Positions 3,088-20,409 are shown, numbered from the stretch's first letter. The stretch is 29,163 nucleotides of DNA from an uncultured Syntrophaceae bacterium (GCA_964579455.1 CAZOHQ010000001.1:1-29163), one strand, 5' to 3'. Made by a program: numbers and translations. The notes: generated by a model from the sequence alone, not told the origin.

Positions 3088-3102
3088 TGGCACCATAATT
3101 GC
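3088..3102 (+). promoter_or_regulatory. sigma54 (-24/-12) promoter
   Basis: TGGCAC-CATAA-TTGC, a consensus match with GG-N10-GC spacing. Confidence 0.85.
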
Positions 3103-12793: not shown

Positions 12794-12866
12794 TGTAATT
12801 CCCGGATACGGGGATATATACACCACACAAAGGTACCATGTTGTATTGAAAAGGGGGCATGCAGTC

Positions 12867-15800
12867 ATGAGTCAGAAATCAACAACCGCCAGAGGGACCA
12901 AGGAGCTATCGCTCCTGTGGGAGGTCAGTCGGGTTCTGGAACAGGGCAACGATGTGAAAAAAATAGGGATGCCCATCCTCCGTGCCCTCGATAAATTCAT
13001 GGGTATGTCGAGGGGTTTTATTACACTCCTGAACAGGGAAACGGGAGAGATCTTCATCGAGGCCGCTCACGGCCTTTCCAAGGCGCAAAAAGAGAGAGGA
13101 AAATATAAGATAGGGGAAGGTGTTGTCGGTAAGGTGGTTGAAACGGGAAGACCCATGATCGTGCCCAAGATTTCCGATGAGCCATTGTTCCTGGACCGAA
13201 CGGGGGTGCGTAAAAATCTTCCGAAAAAGGATATATCGTTCATCTGTGTCCCCATAAGAAATCAGAACGAGGTAATAGGCACGCTCAGTGCAGACAGGGT
13301 GTTCGATGAATCGATCTCACTGAAAGAAGATCTTCGGCTTCTCACCATTATTGCCTCAATGATCGCCCAGGCGGTCCGTCTCCTTCAGCAGGAAGAAGAG
13401 GATCGTCATCGTGCGGTGGAGGAGAAAGACCGTCTGGACAGAAGGGCCTCCAAAAGCCTGCATCTTGTCAGTACGGGCCATGAATTCCTCGATACTATCA
13501 TCAATGGCTTGAGAATCGGGGATAACGTGGTCTGGCAGGTGGATGATCTCGAAGATTACAGATATGTCGCCGGGCTCTTTGTTGAAAGGTCTCTAAAGGA
13601 AAAAAAGAAGCTCGTCTATATACGATTTGCCGATCACGCGCCCCTTGTAAAACCCGGGCAAGAGGTGGTCACCTATCACCTGAATCCGGCAAGCGGCTTT
13701 GAGACATTCTCGACGGAAGTATACAATATTATTACAAAAGAAGGGACAGGCGTTAATTATGTCTTTGACTGTCTCTCCAACCTCCTTTCGGAATGGTCTA
13801 CCGATCTGATGGTGGGAAATTTCTTTGTTATAACCTGTCCCTATCTCTTTGAATTGGATACCATCGCATATTTTGCCGTCATCAGGGGGAATCATTCCTT
13901 CCAGACGATTGCCCGGATTCGTGAAACAACACAGGTGCTGCTCGATCTTCACAACGACAAGGGGACTCTCTATATTCATCCCCTCAAGGTCTGGAAACGG
14001 TATTCTCCCACCATGTTTCTTCCCCACAAGAAGGAGGGGGATGAATTTGTACCGATAATAGACAGTGTGGATGCCGCAAATTTATTTTCCAACATGTCAA
14101 AAAAGAAATTAGAACATGGCGAGAGGAGTCTTGACTATTGGGACAGGTTGTTCATTGAAGCCGAAGGTCTGCTTGAAAAGCCCTGGGAATCGGAAAAAGA
14201 AGAGGACATGATCGACAGGATATGCAGGATCATGATCACCAGGGAGCCCAGAATGTCTATCCTCGTAAAGGACAATTTTTCTCTCGAAGATCTCTTACGG
14301 ATACGGGAGAGATTGATCGGTACCGGTTTTCTCGGGGGAAAAACGGGAGGAATGCTCCTGGCCAGGAAAATTCTGGAACTCGATAAAAACTTTGACTGGC
14401 CATCAATCCTCGAGGAGCATGATTCCTTCTATATAGGGTCCGATGTCTTCTACACCTATCTGGTTCAGAATAACTGGTGGAAACTGCGAATGGAGCAGAA
14501 GACACAAGGGGGCTACTTCAAGGCGGCCCGCATCCTCCGGGATAAAATGAAGAACGGGACTTTCCCCGATGAAGTGAGGGAACAGTTTTACAGGATGCTG
14601 GAATATTTCGGGCAATCACCCATTATCATACGCTCCAGTAGTCTGCTGGAAGATTCTTTTGGAAATGCCTTTGCCGGCAAATATGAGAGCATCTTTCTCG
14701 TGAATCAGGGGGCTCCTGAGGAACGATACGCCCAGTTTGAGAATGCCGTTCGCACAATATACGCCAGTGCCATGAATGAGAATGCCCTGGCCTATCGAAA
14801 GCAGAGGGGTCTTGAAAAGGCTGATGAACAGATGGCCCTTCTCGTGCAGCGTGTCTCGGGATCACATCATAAGAATTATTATTTCCCAGATCTCGCAGGG
14901 GTAGGTATCTCCCATAACACCTTCGTGTGGAATAAGGAAATGGATCCAGAGGCGGGCATACTGAGGCTCGTATTCGGACTCGGAACAAGGGCGGTGAACA
15001 GGGTTGAAGGAGATTACCCCAGAATCGTCGCATTGGACCTTCCCCTTTTGAAACCCCATGGGGGGATGGAAGATACGAGGAAATTTTCTCAACGCGACGT
15101 GGACCTTCTCGATCTCGATCGAAACGGCTTGACGACGAAGTCGGTTCTTAAGCTGTCGGGCGAAGGCCTTGACATAAAAATGGAAAGAATTGCAACAAGA
15201 GATCACGAAACCGATCGGAAGATACGAGAACTTGGCATAAAAGATCAACAAGCATGGGTGTTGACCTTTGACGATTTTTTATCGGATACTCAATTTACCG
15301 ATGTGATGCACAGGATGCTCAAGAAGCTGGAAACAATCTATGACTATCCGGTTGATATAGAATTCACGATGAATTTTACCGATGAAGATGATTTTAAGAT
15401 CAATCTGGTACAGTGCAGGCCTCTTCAAAGACAGGGAGAAGGGAAGAGGGTTGAATTTCCGAAGAATGTCGATAAGGAAAATATCCTCTTTCAATTTGAA
15501 GGCAATTTCCTCGGCGACGGCATTATGGAGTCTGTTGACAGGATTATTTATGTTGACCCGGCACAATACACACAATTGAGTCAGCAGAACAAATATGAAA
15601 TTGCCAGAATCGTGGGGAGACTGAACCGGCAGATCGAGAACAGAGAAAATCTCCATGTCATGTTGCTTGGCCCGGGCAGATGGGGTTCAACGACACCCTC
15701 GTTAGGAGTTCCAGTGGGATTTTCCGAGATAAACAACATCTCGGTGTTGGGTGAAATTGCCTATTCGGACGGAAATCTTATGCCCGAGCTGTCCTATGGT

Positions 15801-16034
15801 ACCCATTTCTTCCAGGACCTTGTGGAGACAAATATCTTTTATATAGCCATTTTCCCGGGTGAAAAAGATGTGATCTTCAATGTGCCATGGCTGGAAAAAT
15901 TTACCAATAAGATGGATGAATTTGTCCCTGATTTTGTCCAATACCGGGATGTTGTGAAGGTTTTCGATACCAGTGAAGAGAATCTGCAGATACTGGCAGA
16001 CATTGTACAGAGAAAGGTGATTTGCTATTACTAA
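12867..16034 (+). CDS. Multidomain protein: NifA-type GAF + KaiC/RecA-like segment + PEP-synthase/PPDK N-terminal (ATP-grasp) domain + C-terminal GPGRWGS/GTHFF domain; function unknown
   Basis: ATG 12867 after AAGGGGG. Residues 13-172 are a GAF closely similar to that of the activator at 18146. From residue 199, STGHEFLDTIINGLRIGD resembles a KaiC-like N-terminus. PPDK_N motifs: GGKTGG, IRSSSLLED..AFAGKYES, MALLVQ, GLGTRAV, PVDIEF, VQCRPL. No pyruvate-binding barrel. Confidence 0.85.
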   Translation: MSQKSTTARGTKELSLLWEVSRVLEQGNDVKKIGMPILRALDKFMGMSRGFITLLNRETGEIFIEAAHGLSKAQKERGKYKIGEGVVGKVVETGRPMIVPKISDEPLFLDRTGVRKNLPKKDISFICVPIRNQNEVIGTLSADRVFDESISLKEDLRLLTIIASMIAQAVRLLQQEEEDRHRAVEEKDRLDRRASKSLHLVSTGHEFLDTIINGLRIGDNVVWQVDDLEDYRYVAGLFVERSLKEKKKLVYIRFADHAPLVKPGQEVVTYHLNPASGFETFSTEVYNIITKEGTGVNYVFDCLSNLLSEWSTDLMVGNFFVITCPYLFELDTIAYFAVIRGNHSFQTIARIRETTQVLLDLHNDKGTLYIHPLKVWKRYSPTMFLPHKKEGDEFVPIIDSVDAANLFSNMSKKKLEHGERSLDYWDRLFIEAEGLLEKPWESEKEEDMIDRICRIMITREPRMSILVKDNFSLEDLLRIRERLIGTGFLGGKTGGMLLARKILELDKNFDWPSILEEHDSFYIGSDVFYTYLVQNNWWKLRMEQKTQGGYFKAARILRDKMKNGTFPDEVREQFYRMLEYFGQSPIIIRSSSLLEDSFGNAFAGKYESIFLVNQGAPEERYAQFENAVRTIYASAMNENALAYRKQRGLEKADEQMALLVQRVSGSHHKNYYFPDLAGVGISHNTFVWNKEMDPEAGILRLVFGLGTRAVNRVEGDYPRIVALDLPLLKPHGGMEDTRKFSQRDVDLLDLDRNGLTTKSVLKLSGEGLDIKMERIATRDHETDRKIRELGIKDQQAWVLTFDDFLSDTQFTDVMHRMLKKLETIYDYPVDIEFTMNFTDEDDFKINLVQCRPLQRQGEGKRVEFPKNVDKENILFQFEGNFLGDGIMESVDRIIYVDPAQYTQLSQQNKYEIARIVGRLNRQIENRENLHVMLLGPGRWGSTTPSLGVPVGFSEINNISVLGEIAYSDGNLMPELSYGTHFFQDLVETNIFYIAIFPGEKDVIFNVPWLEKFTNKMDEFVPDFVQYRDVVKVFDTSEENLQILADIVQRKVICYY

Positions 16035-16176
16035 ACAATCACTTTTAGACAGGTGATCTCTGGCAGAAAAACCGAAAATTACTCTCTTTCTTACTGCCAC
16101 ACTTGCGGGATCCCGTGATTACGGCGTATGACTGAGGGGATCTGAAACGCTACACAGTATGCTCGAGCTATCGAAC

Positions 16177-16224
16177 CCGATACCCTGGATCATGTGATAT
16201 GTTGCCATAATCCAGGGATATCGG
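16177..16224. terminator. Inverted repeat between convergent genes; possible bidirectional terminator or stabilising hairpin
   Basis: CCGATA-CCCTGGAT (16177-16190) pairs with ATCCAGGG-A-TATCGG (16210-16224): a 14-bp stem with one bulge. No clear poly-U tail. Confidence 0.5.
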
Positions 16225-16252
16225 TGACCTTCTGATTGCTTTAATTCCTTTG

Positions 16253-16591
16253 TTATCCGATTGCCGGCCCGCCCCGCTCGCCGGTTCCGATTCTGACCAC
16301 CTCGTTAAGATCAAGGACAAAAATCTTTCCATCGCCAGGTTTGCCGGTGTGTGCACCTTTTTCAATGGCACCAACGGCGAGTTCCGCAAAATCCTCGTTT
16401 ACGGCAATCTCGATCTTTATTTTTTTGAGGAGACCGATCTCCTGGATACCCCGGTACACTTCGGTGTAGCCCTTTTGTCTTCCTCTTCCCAGAACATTAG
16501 AGACGGTGATTAAATGGACCTCAACGTTTTCAAGTTCCTTTCTTACCTCATCAAGCTTATGCGGTTGTATGATCGCTATGATATATTTCAT
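16253..16591 (-). CDS. glnK: Nitrogen regulatory protein PII
   Basis: GRGRQKG, EVYRG, TGKPGDGKIFV; 112 aa; directly downstream of amtB. Confidence 0.95.
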   Translation of the reverse strand: MKYIIAIIQPHKLDEVRKELENVEVHLITVSNVLGRGRQKGYTEVYRGIQEIGLLKKIKIEIAVNEDFAELAVGAIEKGAHTGKPGDGKIFVLDLNEVVRIGTGERGGPAIG

Positions 16592-16600
16592 GTTTTTCTC

Positions 16601-17827
16601 CTATTCTAAGATGGTGTATGCTGACTCGTGGTGCTGGGTCAGGTCAAGTCCTACCAGTTCATCTTCCCTGTCGACCCTCATACCGAAGATGGCATCTACA
16701 ACCTTATAGAGAATCCATGTCACGATGAGCGCATAAGCAATGCATGCAACGAGGTAAAATCCCTGAATGAGAAAGAGTTCTACATTACCGAAAAGAAGGC
16801 CATTTGCCCCAGCTTCGTTTATAACCTTTTCAGCAAAGAGCCCTGTAGCGAGAGTGCCCCACATTCCCCCTACACCATGGACACCAAAAACGTCAAACGC
16901 ATCATCGTATCCAAATTTTGCTTTTACTGCGGTTACAGCCATATAGCAGATCATGCTGGCTATTATTCCTATCACGATTGCCGAGAGAGGGCTGACGAAT
17001 CCGCAGGCAGGTGTGATGGCAACAAGGCCGGCGAGCGCGCCGGTGACAATACCAAGCGTCGTAGGAGCTCCGTGCCGCTGCCATTCAATCAGTGCCCAGG
17101 TAACACCGGCAGCGGCTGCTGCCGTGTTGGTGGTGACAAAGGCATTCGCGGCGAGGCCTCCTGCCCCCAATGCACTGCCCGCATTAAATCCGAACCATCC
17201 GAACCAGAGGAGCGCGCCTCCCAGAACCGTCAAAGTCAGATTGTGAGGTGCAAAACCATGGCCATTGGTTCGTATTCTTTTCCCGATAAGGATTGCCATC
17301 AGGAGTGCGGAAACCCCGGAACTGACATGGACGACGATTCCCCCGGCGAAATCGAGCGCCCCGAGATTACTCAGCCATCCACCTCCCCATACCCAGTGAG
17401 CGATCGGATCATACACAAAGGTTGTCCATAGAAGCATCATTATTACAAAGGCGGAAAACTTGATTCGCTCGGCAAATGCTCCAACGATCAGGGCCGGTGT
17501 GATAATGGCAAACATGGCCTGAAATATCATAAAGACAAGGTGCGGAATCGTGCCTGAATAATTGCCGTCCGGTTCGAATCCAACCCCTCTCAGCCCCGCC
17601 CACTGGAGACTTCCGATAATTCCGTGCACGTCCGGTCCAAAGGCGAGAGAATAACCGAAAAGGACCCATTGCAGACTCATGAGACACATTATGAAGTAAC
17701 ACTGCATCAGTACAGACAGCATATTCTTCCTTCGGGCCAACCCTCCGTAAAAGAGGGCAACGCCCGGCGTCATGATGAAAACGAGAGCGGCACAGGTCAT
17801 CACCCATGCGGTATCACCAGTATTCAT
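16601..17827 (-). CDS. amtB: Ammonium transporter
   Basis: FQAMFAIIT, AHWVWGGG, DFAGGIVVH, LWFGWFGFNAGS, DVFGVHG (both pore His, Phe gate and Trp retained); GGAGG RBS. Confidence 0.97.
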   Translation of the reverse strand: MNTGDTAWVMTCAALVFIMTPGVALFYGGLARRKNMLSVLMQCYFIMCLMSLQWVLFGYSLAFGPDVHGIIGSLQWAGLRGVGFEPDGNYSGTIPHLVFMIFQAMFAIITPALIVGAFAERIKFSAFVIMMLLWTTFVYDPIAHWVWGGGWLSNLGALDFAGGIVVHVSSGVSALLMAILIGKRIRTNGHGFAPHNLTLTVLGGALLWFGWFGFNAGSALGAGGLAANAFVTTNTAAAAAGVTWALIEWQRHGAPTTLGIVTGALAGLVAITPACGFVSPLSAIVIGIIASMICYMAVTAVKAKFGYDDAFDVFGVHGVGGMWGTLATGLFAEKVINEAGANGLLFGNVELFLIQGFYLVACIAYALIVTWILYKVVDAIFGMRVDREDELVGLDLTQHHESAYTILE

Positions 17828-17879
17828 TGTACGACCTCCAGTATAACAATTTTTAATATTTTCTACGATCCAGTACCTA

Positions 17880-17894
17880 TCAATATCCGTACCA
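17880..17894 (-). promoter_or_regulatory. Putative sigma54 promoter for amtB-glnK
   Basis: Minus strand TGGTAC-GGATA-TTGA: correct GG spacing, with -12 GC changed to GA. About 53 nt from the amtB start; UAS pair 80-125 bp upstream. Confidence 0.6.
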
Positions 17895-17972
17895 AATGAT
17901 ACTGGTATTCATATCTATTTGATAATATAATAAATCTATCAAAATCTCTTTTAATAAACCGCTAAGACAATG

Positions 17973-18016
17973 CTACATTGCCGTAATTAACATTGGATAA
18001 AATAACAATTATGTAG
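17973..18016. promoter_or_regulatory. Tandem putative enhancer (UAS) sites between the divergent amtB and activator genes
   Basis: CTACA-TTGC-CGTAA (17973-17986) and TAACA-ATTA-TGTAG (18003-18016), 30 bp apart. Confidence 0.7.
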
Positions 18017-18145
18017 TATTCTCCATCCTTATCAATGTGACGGTCGAAATGAAGGCAGCAAGTGAAGGTGGTTACTCTGTATTTGCTACAGCCCTGTTAA
18101 TGGGATACAGGGCAGGCTGGTAACTTACACACGAGGAGCATGAGG

Positions 18146-19708
18146 ATGGAGCAGAAGGAAAAGCATAAAGCAACCCGGAAGAGCAGGGAAATGAGTGAAC
18201 TTTCCTTGCTCTACGAAGTCAGCCAGGCCCTTGGTCGAAGCCTGGAAATTCGAGAAGTGACAGGACCCGTATTAAATGCACTGGCGGAGAAAATGGGTAT
18301 GACACGGGGGACACTGACACTCCTCAATAGAAACAGTGGAGAGATGTTTATAGAGATAGCCCACGGATTATCCGAGATGCAGAAAAAGAAGGGACGATAT
18401 CAGATAGGCGAAGGAGTTACCGGCAAGGTAGTGGAAACCGGCCAGCCAGTAATCGTTCCCCACATCTCCGATGAACCCCTTTTTCTGGACAGGACGGGAT
18501 CACGAAAAGATCTTAACAAAACGGACATTTCTTACATCTGTGTCCCCATAAAAATTGGAACGGAGGTCATCGGGGCCCTCAGCGCCGACAGGCTCTTTGA
18601 CGAGACCATATCCCTAAAAGAGGATGTACGACTCCTTTCGATTATTGCATCCATGGTAGCCCAGGCAGTTCGGCTTCGCCAGGAGACACAGGAAGAACGT
18701 GAACTGCTGATTCAGGAAAACCTGCGCCTGCAGAGCGAATTGAAAGAAAAGTTTCGTCCCTCGAATATCATAGGCAAGTCCAAGGGAATACAGGAGGTAT
18801 ATCAACTCATTGCCCAGGTATCCAACAGCACTGCCAACGTATTGATCCGGGGTGAAAGCGGGACAGGCAAAGAGCTTATAGCAAATGCCATTCATTTTAA
18901 CAGTATGAGGGCCAGTAAACCCCTGGTCAAGGTCAATTGTGCCGCACTCCCCGAAACGGTCCTCGAAAGCGAGCTTTTCGGTCATGAAAAGGGAGCTTTT
19001 ACGGGAGCCACTTCCTTGAGAAAGGGGCGATTTGAACTGTCTCATGGGGGGACAATATTTCTCGACGAGGTGGGAGATCTTCCCCCAATGGTACAAATAC
19101 GGCTTTTGAGGGTCCTCCAGGAACGCGAATTTGAGCGGGTGGGCGGAACCCAGACGATGAAAATCGATGTGCGGGTGATTGCAGCGACAAACAGGAATCT
19201 GGAAACATTGATGGAAAAGGGAGATTTCAGGCAGGATCTCTACTATCGGCTCAATGTATTCCCCATCTATGTGCCCCCTCTCAGAGAACGGAAATCTGAC
19301 ATTCTGCTTCTCACCGACTTCTTTGTGGAACGGTACGCCAGGGCAAATAATAAGAGGATTCAGCGAATCTGTACCCATGCCATAGACATGCTTATGAGTT
19401 ATCACTGGCCGGGTAATGTCAGGGAATTGGAAAACAGTATTGAGCGGGCAGTCCTTCTCAGCAATGAGGGTGTGATCTATGGATATCATCTTCCCCCCAC
19501 GCTGCAGACCTCTGCATATTCAGGAACGATTCCCTATGGAACGCTTCAGGGCGAGGTTGACCGATATGAGCGCGATCTCATAATGGATGCCCTGAAGACC
19601 TCAAGGGGAAACATGTCAAGGGCTGCGAAAATTCTCGGTACCACGGAAAGAATCATCGGATTGCGGGCCCAGAAATACGATATAGACTCTAAGCGCTTTC
19701 GTACATAA
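18146..19708 (+). CDS. NifA-type sigma54-dependent transcriptional activator (GAF-AAA+-Fis HTH)
   Basis: N-terminal GAF, GESGTGKE, GAFTGA, FLDEVGDL, WPGNVREL, C-terminal HTH (RGNMSRAAKILG). Start 18146 is preferred to 18140 on RBS spacing (GAGGAG at 18133-18138). Confidence 0.95.
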   Translation: MEQKEKHKATRKSREMSELSLLYEVSQALGRSLEIREVTGPVLNALAEKMGMTRGTLTLLNRNSGEMFIEIAHGLSEMQKKKGRYQIGEGVTGKVVETGQPVIVPHISDEPLFLDRTGSRKDLNKTDISYICVPIKIGTEVIGALSADRLFDETISLKEDVRLLSIIASMVAQAVRLRQETQEERELLIQENLRLQSELKEKFRPSNIIGKSKGIQEVYQLIAQVSNSTANVLIRGESGTGKELIANAIHFNSMRASKPLVKVNCAALPETVLESELFGHEKGAFTGATSLRKGRFELSHGGTIFLDEVGDLPPMVQIRLLRVLQEREFERVGGTQTMKIDVRVIAATNRNLETLMEKGDFRQDLYYRLNVFPIYVPPLRERKSDILLLTDFFVERYARANNKRIQRICTHAIDMLMSYHWPGNVRELENSIERAVLLSNEGVIYGYHLPPTLQTSAYSGTIPYGTLQGEVDRYERDLIMDALKTSRGNMSRAAKILGTTERIIGLRAQKYDIDSKRFRT

Positions 19709-19841: not shown

Positions 19842-19856
19842 TGGCACTAAAGTTGC
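19842..19856 (+). promoter_or_regulatory. sigma54 (-24/-12) promoter
   Basis: TGGCAC-TAAAG-TTGC consensus match, 30 nt upstream of the glnA remnant ATG. Confidence 0.88.
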
Positions 19857-19885: not shown

Positions 19886-20409
19886 ATGCCAATAAAACAC
19901 AAATATTCTGTTTTTAAATAGGCAAGAGAGAAGCATGTACAGTTTATCCGCTTGTGGTTCACGGATGTACTCGGTTTTCTCAAGAGCTTTTCCATCTCCC
20001 CCCGGGAGCTGGAACTCGCCTTTGAAGAGGGTATGGGGTTCGACGGTTCGTCCATAGAAGGGTTCGCGCGGATCGAAGAGATCGATATGGTTGCGAAACC
20101 CGATCCCGGCACCTTTGCCATTCTGCCCTGGCGGGTATGAAAGGTATGGAGGAAGGATACCTCCTGGCCGGTTCTATTGAAGAGGATATCTTTGAGATGT
20201 CTGAAAAAGAGCGAGAAGACAGGGATATCGAATCTCTGCCGGGAAGCCTTGGAGAGGCGATACAGATGACGGAAAAAAGCGAACTTGTCAGAGAGGCACT
20301 GGGAGACCACATATTCAATAAATTTAACGAGAACAAGAAGATAGAGTGGGATCACTACCACGTGCACGTAAGCGATTATGAGCTGGGCAAGCACCTGCCT
20401 ATCCTTTGA
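19886..20409 (+). pseudogene. glnA: Glutamine synthetase type I remnant: premature TAG plus large internal deletion and frameshift
   Basis: ATG 19886, TAG at 19919-19921, then ..[30 protein letters not shown] (GS N-terminus). This is joined at ~20134 to a different frame, [32 protein letters not shown] (GS C-terminus). The catalytic core is absent. Confidence 0.92.

Follow-up and report, generated by a model that had tools for sequence, protein, structure and literature searches.

Why does one bacterial locus carry the same type of GAF sensor domain on two different proteins, and do the two copies read the same signal? The question is raised by a 29,163-nt stretch of DNA from an uncultured Syntrophaceae bacterium (GCA_964579455.1 CAZOHQ010000001.1:1-29163; this whole stretch is referred to below as the window). 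Here, one GAF domain belongs to a NifA-type sigma-54 activator, and the other forms the N-terminus of a 1055-aa protein that continues with KaiC-like, PPDK_N ATP-grasp and C-terminal domains. The last three domains, which also occur as a GAF-less protein of ~860 aa, are called the body. The fused GAF is best read as an old capture, and we consider it somewhat probable that the same metabolite cue, probably 2-oxoglutarate, feeds a transcriptional and an enzymatic or regulatory output in parallel. The features on which the comparison is based are the following.

12867..16034, + strand: gene of the GAF / KaiC-like / ATP-grasp / C-terminal-domain protein, 1055 aa (open reading frame (ORF) list, Pfam GAF and PPDK_N, AlphaFold2 (AF2) model)
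18140..19708, + strand: gene of the NifA-type sigma-54 activator, 522 aa, with GAF, AAA+ and Fis-type helix-turn-helix (HTH) domains (TIGR01817, Pfam)
12888..13436, + strand: GAF copy 1 (fused), including the start of the signalling helix (BLASTP-aligned stretch, PDB and Foldseek matches)
18182..18730, + strand: GAF copy 2 (activator) (BLASTP, identity count)
13170..13205 (fused copy) and 18464-18499 (activator copy), + strand: loop motif ISDEPLFLDRTG, identical in both copies
13320..13448, + strand: long C-terminal GAF helix and linker of the fused copy, residues 152-194 (43 residues; DSSP on the AF2 model)

The translations of 12903-13382 and 18197-18676 align without gaps and share 109 of 160 residues, including 91 of the final 120. 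These counts reproduce those of a first-pass annotation of this DNA, which had reported 109 identities over 160 aa and ~76% over the last 120. In BLASTP, the alignment of the fused and activator GAFs extends over 183 aa (63% identity, 83% positives, zero gaps, E 2e-72). Both stretches match the Pfam GAF/GAF_2 models and the N-terminal part of the NifA model TIGR01817 (E 1.5e-34 for the fused GAF), as well as the solved GAF domains of Aquifex Nlh1 and Nlh2 and of NifA. The best PDB sequence match of the fused GAF is the Nlh1 GAF 4g3k (E 1e-27), and its Foldseek matches are 4g3v, 4g3w and 8jrc; NifA (9qq6/8jrc) and Nlh2 are further best solved relatives of both copies. Both retain the long C-terminal GAF helix, which in the fused copy is the counterpart of the coiled-coil "signalling helix" of Nlh1-type activators.

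At the DNA level, the two copies are 63.6% identical, with only 38.8% identity at third codon positions. The same codon is used at 49 of 116 identical residues (42%), in agreement with the many synonymous differences noted earlier. The proportion of synonymous differences (pS) is 0.755, that is, saturated; the longest identical run is 17 nt, and neither a sliding-window scan nor the codon-identity count revealed any tract of gene conversion or recent duplication between the copies. Saturated synonymous sites and the lack of a conversion tract mean that no recent duplication or gene conversion took place. The proposal of a local domain duplication, recent and in place, has therefore to be given up. 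It had some appeal, as the two genes are 2.1 kb apart on the same strand, and this two-gene layout recurs in two further loci (L003 and L004). However, the identity of the two GAFs within a genome is 60–67% in all cases where both were seen (the window, L003, L004 and P0016/P0135), while GAF orthologues are 73–98% identical. Given also the relatives described next, we regard a recent duplication or conversion within the locus as very improbable.

More than 120 activators found elsewhere in a database search with the activator GAF region only have GAFs nearer to that of the window activator than the fused GAF is (65–92% identical); some of their sources are named Syntrophales, Desulfobacterales, Desulfomonilaceae and Planctomycetota. 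The nearest orthologue among the loci, in L004, is 98% identical. The nearest relatives of the fused GAF are, in turn, the GAFs of this same activator clade (58–66% identity), whereas other activator GAFs adjoining body genes are just 36–52% identical to it. Maximum-likelihood (ML) trees place the fused GAFs in a clade apart, with the entire clade of close activators as its sister; Shimodaira–Hasegawa-like approximate likelihood ratio (SH-aLRT) support for it is 94 in a quick tree of 174 rows and 98/94 in a careful tree of 80 rows. The planctomycete activator GAFs branch farther out, and the Smithella/Syntrophus-type ones farther yet. Two divergent fused proteins, P0030 and P0034, have GAFs placed inside the activator clade. 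Taken together, the closer activator GAFs elsewhere, the separate fused clade and the signs of an old split argue that the window GAFs are paralogues from sister clades of one NifA-type subfamily and not mutual nearest relatives. The question whether the copies are sisters thus has a divided answer: their clades are, the copies themselves are not.

As the window derives from a metagenome, with low coverage in the likely source run, a misassembly could in principle have joined a GAF to a KaiC-like/ATP-grasp gene. However, contigs of three independent public runs, one of them 15 kb long at ~95.6% identity, cross the GAF-to-KaiC-like junction at 13400-13460 without a joint, so that the junction on which the earlier annotation depended is real. 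Moreover, the same architecture, with a consistent phylogeny, is present in ~16 protein clusters and 6 genome (GTDB) loci from different studies. The chance that the fused gene is a chimera is negligible.

Both copies are under strong purifying selection: the ratio of nonsynonymous to synonymous rates (dN/dS) among orthologues is 0.055–0.098 for the fused GAF and 0.052 for the activator GAF, which bears out the suggestion that the pair has been retained under selection. Among alignment columns conserved at 90% or more in both clades, 57 carry the same residue and three are conserved but different (I/V, Q/G and E/Q). The identically conserved columns include both terminal helices, ELSLL.EVS at the N-terminal end and RLL.IIASM.AQAVRL at the C-terminal end. 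The loop ISDEPLFLDRTG is of particular interest, as the Phe in it corresponds to position 119 in an alignment with NifA chain 9qq6_C, and the substitution F119S in A. vinelandii NifA abolishes binding of 2-oxoglutarate (PMC9866876). The loop region (residues 102–117) has low confidence in the AF2 model of the fused protein. Conservation of this Phe equivalent in both copies is consistent with a common ligand, although it is no proof.

These positions also bear on the alternative that the fused GAF has been re-tuned to another ligand or to PII binding, the likeness to the activator GAF reflecting common descent only. The split is old, ~35% of the residues differ, the three conserved-but-different columns could mark such a change, and ligand switching is known in GAF domains. 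On the other hand, the 57 shared columns stand against these three, the loop is identical, and present-day rates are equally low in both copies. We therefore take re-tuning to be rather improbable. The idea of one signal with a second output fits the finding that almost all conserved positions are shared with the activator clade, but the function itself is something we infer.

What, then, does the fused GAF control? Database orthologues of 1055 aa, 80–93% identical to the window protein, begin at the equivalent of the ATG at 12867; with the TTG at 12846, farther upstream, the product would have 1062 aa. The AF2 model of the 1055-aa protein has a mean predicted local distance difference test score (pLDDT) of 82.4 and a predicted template modelling score (pTM) of 0.75. 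From the N- to the C-terminus, a GAF and its signalling helix are followed by the P-loop-less KaiC-like domain, the PPDK_N ATP-grasp and the C-terminal domain, the last three being delimited as follows.

13461..14054, + strand: KaiC/RecA-fold domain without a P-loop, residues ~199-396 (Foldseek; no Pfam match at E<=0.01)
14331..15476, + strand: PPDK_N-type ATP-grasp nucleotide-binding domain (Pfam PF01326, E 2.2e-49)
15477..16031, + strand: C-terminal domain, ~180 aa, without a PDB fold match (invariant columns, AF2)

The middle domain, called RecA-like in the first-pass annotation, does have this fold: Foldseek matches it to KaiC, FlaH (TMt 0.64) and RecA with probability 1.0. Its Walker A P-loop, GxxGxGK[ST], is replaced by GDNVVWQVDDLEDY (VVWQVDDLEDY), which is invariant across the body family; as read in the sequence, GDNVVWQVDD (13518-13547) occupies the place of GxxGxGKT. 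The ATP-grasp domain has intact nucleotide motifs (RSSSLLED..FAGKYES and DIEFT..QCRPLQ, from an alignment to PEP synthase 8a8e), and its top Foldseek match is rifampin phosphotransferase 5hv3 (E 6e-13). The C-terminal domain has the invariants GPGRWG (15669-15686) and a His, H980 (15804-15806). Modelled separately, it gives a confident AF2 structure (pLDDT 92.2, pTM 0.90), for which a PDB fold search found no match (best E 0.068).

At first sight, the C-terminal domain could be a swivel phosphohistidine domain, as ELSYGTHFFQDLVE and the order of strands and helices resembled GG-TSH-AAIVARE. This candidate was rejected, the confident model having no match among PDB folds, and only a loose resemblance to the G-T-H motif is left. 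Pfam and NCBIfam searches of the 1055-aa protein gave no match either to a PEP-utilizers swivel-His domain or to a PEP/pyruvate-binding TIM barrel, and the protein ends past the 180-aa C-terminal domain. The former description "PPDK-like" therefore holds for the PPDK_N ATP-grasp nucleotide domain and not for the swivel-His or PEP/pyruvate domains; the apt label is the narrower "PPDK_N ATP-grasp", and the protein is not a PPDK.

The GAF-less body is far more common than the fused form. Among 8000 candidates scored, 4582 clusters of GAF-less bodies were found at E<=0.001, with 60–70% identity to the window body, compared to ~16 clusters of the rare GAF-bearing form. We found no literature on this KaiC-like/ATP-grasp body family. 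A body tree with 198 rows divides the fused forms into three subclades (14, 3 and 3 rows), all within one clade of 35 rows (support 99) and each beside a GAF-less subclade; the same three fused groups are recovered as one clade in the GAF tree. GAF-less members of the 35-row clade retain charged N-terminal stubs of 10–35 residues, one of which reads RDTKELTFFEE, compared to RGTKELSLLWE in the window protein. Body members outside this clade have no stub and begin five or six residues ahead of the KaiC-like domain. The simplest history would be one old fusion, predating the 35-row clade, followed by two internal deletions of the GAF. P0030 and P0034, whose genes hold the same purF...carB operon position, would derive from a second fusion event or from an older offshoot of the first. 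Overall, trees and rates show that a widespread GAF-less body family captured a GAF of the activator type long ago, which was followed by vertical descent, purifying selection and secondary losses.

Two unusual homologues were seen in addition. P0017 (1489 aa) has two PPDK_N stretches and unusual composition, which could stem from tandem duplication of the body or from a wrong gene join. L082:4262-7210 (- strand) encodes a 982-aa paralogue, 24% identical to the window protein (E 7e-40), with a weak N-terminal match to a receiver domain ahead of a PPDK_N ATP-grasp; its C-terminal domain is the same as in the window protein (GPGRWGS ... G-F-HFF). The receiver-bearing paralogue shows that the ATP-grasp and C-terminal module can apparently accept different sensor domains, as expected of a signalling output.

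To see whether the body and the activator are associated beyond the window, we considered 65 body loci with at least 8 kb of flank, counting genes within 10 kb. Nitrogen-assimilation genes (amtB, PII, GOGAT, carAB, guaA or pyrG) are present in 53 of the 65, and a GAF-type sigma-54 activator in 29. In genomes of the Syntrophus/Smithella type, the activator gene is either transcribed divergently from the body gene or located directly 3' of it. In 14 Planctomycetota loci, the activator stop is followed after 2–3 nt by the ATG of the body gene, with a Shine-Dalgarno-like run within the last activator codons, an arrangement that indicates translational coupling, as judged from the junctions. The planctomycete junction is strongly conserved (L026-L078: ...AAGA(A/G)AGGT TGA/TAA TTT ATG ACN GCN TGG GCA AGT ACN GG); here the last codons of the activator serve also as the ribosome-binding site of the body, and the two ORFs share one reading frame in 12 of 15 loci. 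The locus search had suggested activator-body fusions of ~1370 aa in Planctomycetota; ORF analysis resolved these into two genes separated by a stop and 2–3 nt. True fusions of another kind do exist: in P0243-P0251 (754–787 aa), a P-loop-less KaiC-like domain of the body type (GDNVVWEVD) is N-terminal to a NifA-type GAF-AAA+-HTH activator, with E 1e-20 for the KaiC-like domain and E 3e-39 for the GAF in P0249. Two such KaiC-like-activator fusions (L083:10001-12334 and L084:10001-12328) are located immediately upstream of gdhA or gltB, with purF, carA, guaA, pyrG, hisH, hisF and carB coming next. These operons are the same glutamine-amidotransferase regulon as that of the window. The link between body and activator is supported by three independent gene architectures across phyla.

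Two further variants of the activator were encountered. In a Pirellulales metagenome-assembled genome, L024:622-1446 is an ORF of 274 aa with a NifA-type GAF, a linker and a Fis-type HTH but without AAA+. It takes the place of the full activator gene in this fifteenth Planctomycetota locus, its stop lying 3 nt from the body ATG, and may represent a natural variant that binds DNA without activating (a repressor or anti-activator). P0241 (647 aa, on a 2.3-kb contig) is a NifA-type activator with a GAF 57% identical to the fused GAF and an Hpt domain C-terminal to the HTH.

Such layouts raise the possibility of heteromeric contact, in which the fused GAF and its helix would form a mixed back-to-back dimer with the activator GAF, the protein being a NifL-like anti-activator or a co-activator that titrates or gates the sigma-54 activator instead of sensing in parallel with it. 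The columns of both terminal helices are identically conserved in the two GAF clades, and body and activator are coupled in Planctomycetota in the same manner as nifL and nifA. Judging from the KaiC-like-GAF-AAA+ fusions, the KaiC-like module and the activator work together within a single complex in certain lineages, and Nlh1-type GAFs are known to dimerise back-to-back through their terminal helices (PMC9866876). However, the paralogues have long been ~35% different, with neither a co-evolving nor a converted tract between them, no activator lies close to several of the GAF-body genes, and in the BLASTP alignment the helix sequences of the two copies part ways directly past AQAVRL. The conserved terminal helices lend a mixed dimer structural plausibility, and we treat it as the foremost rival, but judge it unlikely.

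A broader interpretation, possible though we hold it with considerable doubt, is that the body family lies at the heart of a cross-phylum device for signalling nitrogen status that has so far gone unrecognised. It would work with NifA-type GAF activators, either as a NifL-like partner or as a GlnD/GlnE-like modifier, in bacteria for which regulators of this sort have not been characterised, and the KaiC-like pseudo-ATPase would dock the activator. If this were true, the ATP-grasp and C-terminal domains would constitute a new nucleotide-dependent output, for example one modifying PII, GOGAT, glutamine synthetase or the activator, and the GAF-body protein, the activator-body operon and the KaiC-like-activator fusion would be three wirings of the same three modules.

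The genetic surroundings in the window show which genes such a pair might serve. The activator scores 540.1 bits with TIGR01817 (cutoff 528.85), contains the Pfam domains GAF, Sigma54_activat, AAA_lid_14 and HTH_8, and has its GAFTGA motif at residues 285–290 (18992-19009). It is neighboured by amtB-glnK, a class I glutamine amidotransferase (GATase) gene and a split GOGAT, of which amtB, the GATase and the amidotransferase part of GOGAT were confirmed with Pfam. No nitrogenase (nif) genes were recognised by eye among ORFs of at least 150 aa in the 29-kb window. The remaining features are:

16253..16591, - strand: PII (GlnK-like) gene, 3' of amtB (ORF; tblastn orthologues adjoin amtB in many loci)
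16601..17827, - strand: ammonium transporter gene amtB, divergent from the activator gene (Pfam Ammonium_transp, E 8e-133)
3088..3102, + strand: perfect match to the -24/-12 sigma-54 promoter, TGGCACCATAATTGC, upstream of purF (pattern search)
19842..19856, + strand: second perfect sigma-54 promoter match, TGGCACTAAAGTTGC, 3' of the activator gene, in front of the GATase/GOGAT genes (pattern search)
17880-17894, - strand: match to the sigma-54 -24/-12 consensus with 2 mismatches, ahead of amtB-glnK

The gene of the 1055-aa protein and that of the activator belong to different transcription units, with amtB-glnK, on the minus strand, between them. The former follows carB after 53–73 nt and probably closes a purF-aspS-carA-guaA-carB unit. 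There is no long + strand ORF between the match at 3088 and purF, and this match is likely to be the promoter of the whole unit, including the gene of the GAF protein. Nearly all genes of the window use glutamine or ammonia (purF, carAB, guaA, GATase, GOGAT, pyrG and a glmS-like gene). The region 19886-20409, between the activator and GATase genes, contains 5 stop codons in the frame tried.

Returning to a shared cue with parallel outputs, we suggest the following mechanism. Both GAFs would sense one small-molecule cue of nitrogen and carbon status, most likely 2-oxoglutarate, and each, via its C-terminal helix, would relay it to an output of its own. For the activator, this would be assembly of the AAA+ ring and sigma-54 transcription of amtB, GOGAT and the glutamine-amidotransferase operons. 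In the fused protein, the helix would determine how the KaiC-like module oligomerises or is oriented, and thereby the activity of the ATP-grasp domain, similarly to Nlh1, whose GAF dimer controls the downstream domain via a coiled-coil signalling helix (PMC9866876). In the GAF-less body, the signal would probably arrive by contact with the activator, and the fusion would swap this trans contact for a cis (intramolecular) sensor.

Several points weigh against this mechanism or the history underlying it. The argument from the F119 equivalent concerns a single residue, and NifA-family GAFs are reported to act via PII contact as well, while EI-Ntr GAFs bind glutamine. The GAF-tree backbone is weak (89/46), and the approximately unbiased (AU) test rejects neither a single origin of all fused GAFs (p 0.35), leaving one versus two fusions undecided, nor the nesting of the main fused clade in the Syntrophales-type activators (p 0.097). 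Six GAF-body loci (L002, L005, L021, L081, L082 and L085) have no activator in the 1.7–10 kb of flank available. An own sigma-54 promoter was found ahead of the body gene in 3 of 76 loci, which is the background level of 2.9%, so that membership of the body in the regulon rests on operon position. As there is no match to a swivel fold, phosphotransfer of the dikinase type is not supported, and the ATP-grasp module could be a nucleotide sensor alone. In general, everything past anatomy and evolution, that is, the ligand, activity, substrate and protein contacts, is what we infer.

How Syntrophales, Planctomycetota, Omnitrophota and related anaerobes regulate nitrogen is practically uncharted. 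In this setting, the shared GAF serves as a "Rosetta stone" that ties a very large (thousands of clusters), highly conserved and unstudied body family to NifA-type activators and to the regulon of ammonium uptake, GOGAT and glutamine amidotransferases. It gives a concrete hypothesis in which one metabolite feeds two outputs, with three alternative ways of wiring the domains. Should the body turn out to be a regulator or a modifier, it would take the part that NifL, GlnD or GlnE have in Proteobacteria.

Of the known systems, NifA and Nlh1-Nlh2 of Aquifex aeolicus are related through the GAF: both window GAFs are of this type, and the activator, with GAFTGA and a Fis-type HTH, is above the TIGR01817 cutoff. 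By contrast with nif regulation, the context in the window is ammonium uptake, GOGAT and glutamine amidotransferases, and the second GAF is carried by a non-transcriptional protein. A role of this kind, in nitrogen assimilation outside nif, has been the subject of speculation for Nlh1 (PMC9866876).

In logic, the best precedent is PtsP (EI-Ntr), in which a GAF gates a phosphotransferase by nitrogen status. There, the GAF is N-terminal on a phosphotransferase; here, it is N-terminal to a PPDK_N ATP-grasp protein, and the fused GAF has a weak NCBIfam match to PtsP (PRK11061, E 0.002). Enzyme I shares its mobile and PEP-binding domains with PEP synthase and PPDK. Unlike PtsP, the window protein has no Pfam or NCBIfam match to HPr-binding, swivel-His or PEP-binding domains, and has instead a KaiC-like pseudo-ATPase, a PPDK_N ATP-grasp, which is absent from EI, and the C-terminal domain. 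Autophosphorylation of EI-Ntr is inhibited by glutamine, and its GAF is required to bind glutamine (PMC4848567).

Similar to NifL-NifA, a sigma-54 GAF activator is paired with a co-encoded, predicted nucleotide-binding partner, to which it is seemingly coupled in the 14 Planctomycetota loci; nifL and nifA are translationally coupled too. The differences are that the order for the body is activator then partner, that an inhibitory complex is hypothetical, and that the 1055-aa protein has no Pfam or NCBIfam match to the PAS, H and GHKL domains of the NifL type. The ATP-grasp domain resembles those of PEP synthase, PPDK and rifampin phosphotransferase in the motifs RSS..ED..FAG and DIE...Q.RP and in having 5hv3 as the top fold match, but the window protein lacks a detectable swivel phosphohistidine domain, PEP/pyruvate TIM barrel or rifampin-binding domain. 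Residues ~199–396 have the fold of the KaiC, FlaH and RecA (pseudo)ATPases; they differ in the replacement of Walker A by VDDLEDY, in being a single domain inside a larger enzyme, and in having no clock or archaellum context. Thus, the locus presents known designs, the GAF-gated enzyme and the activator-plus-partner pair, in a new form built on an uncharacterised family.

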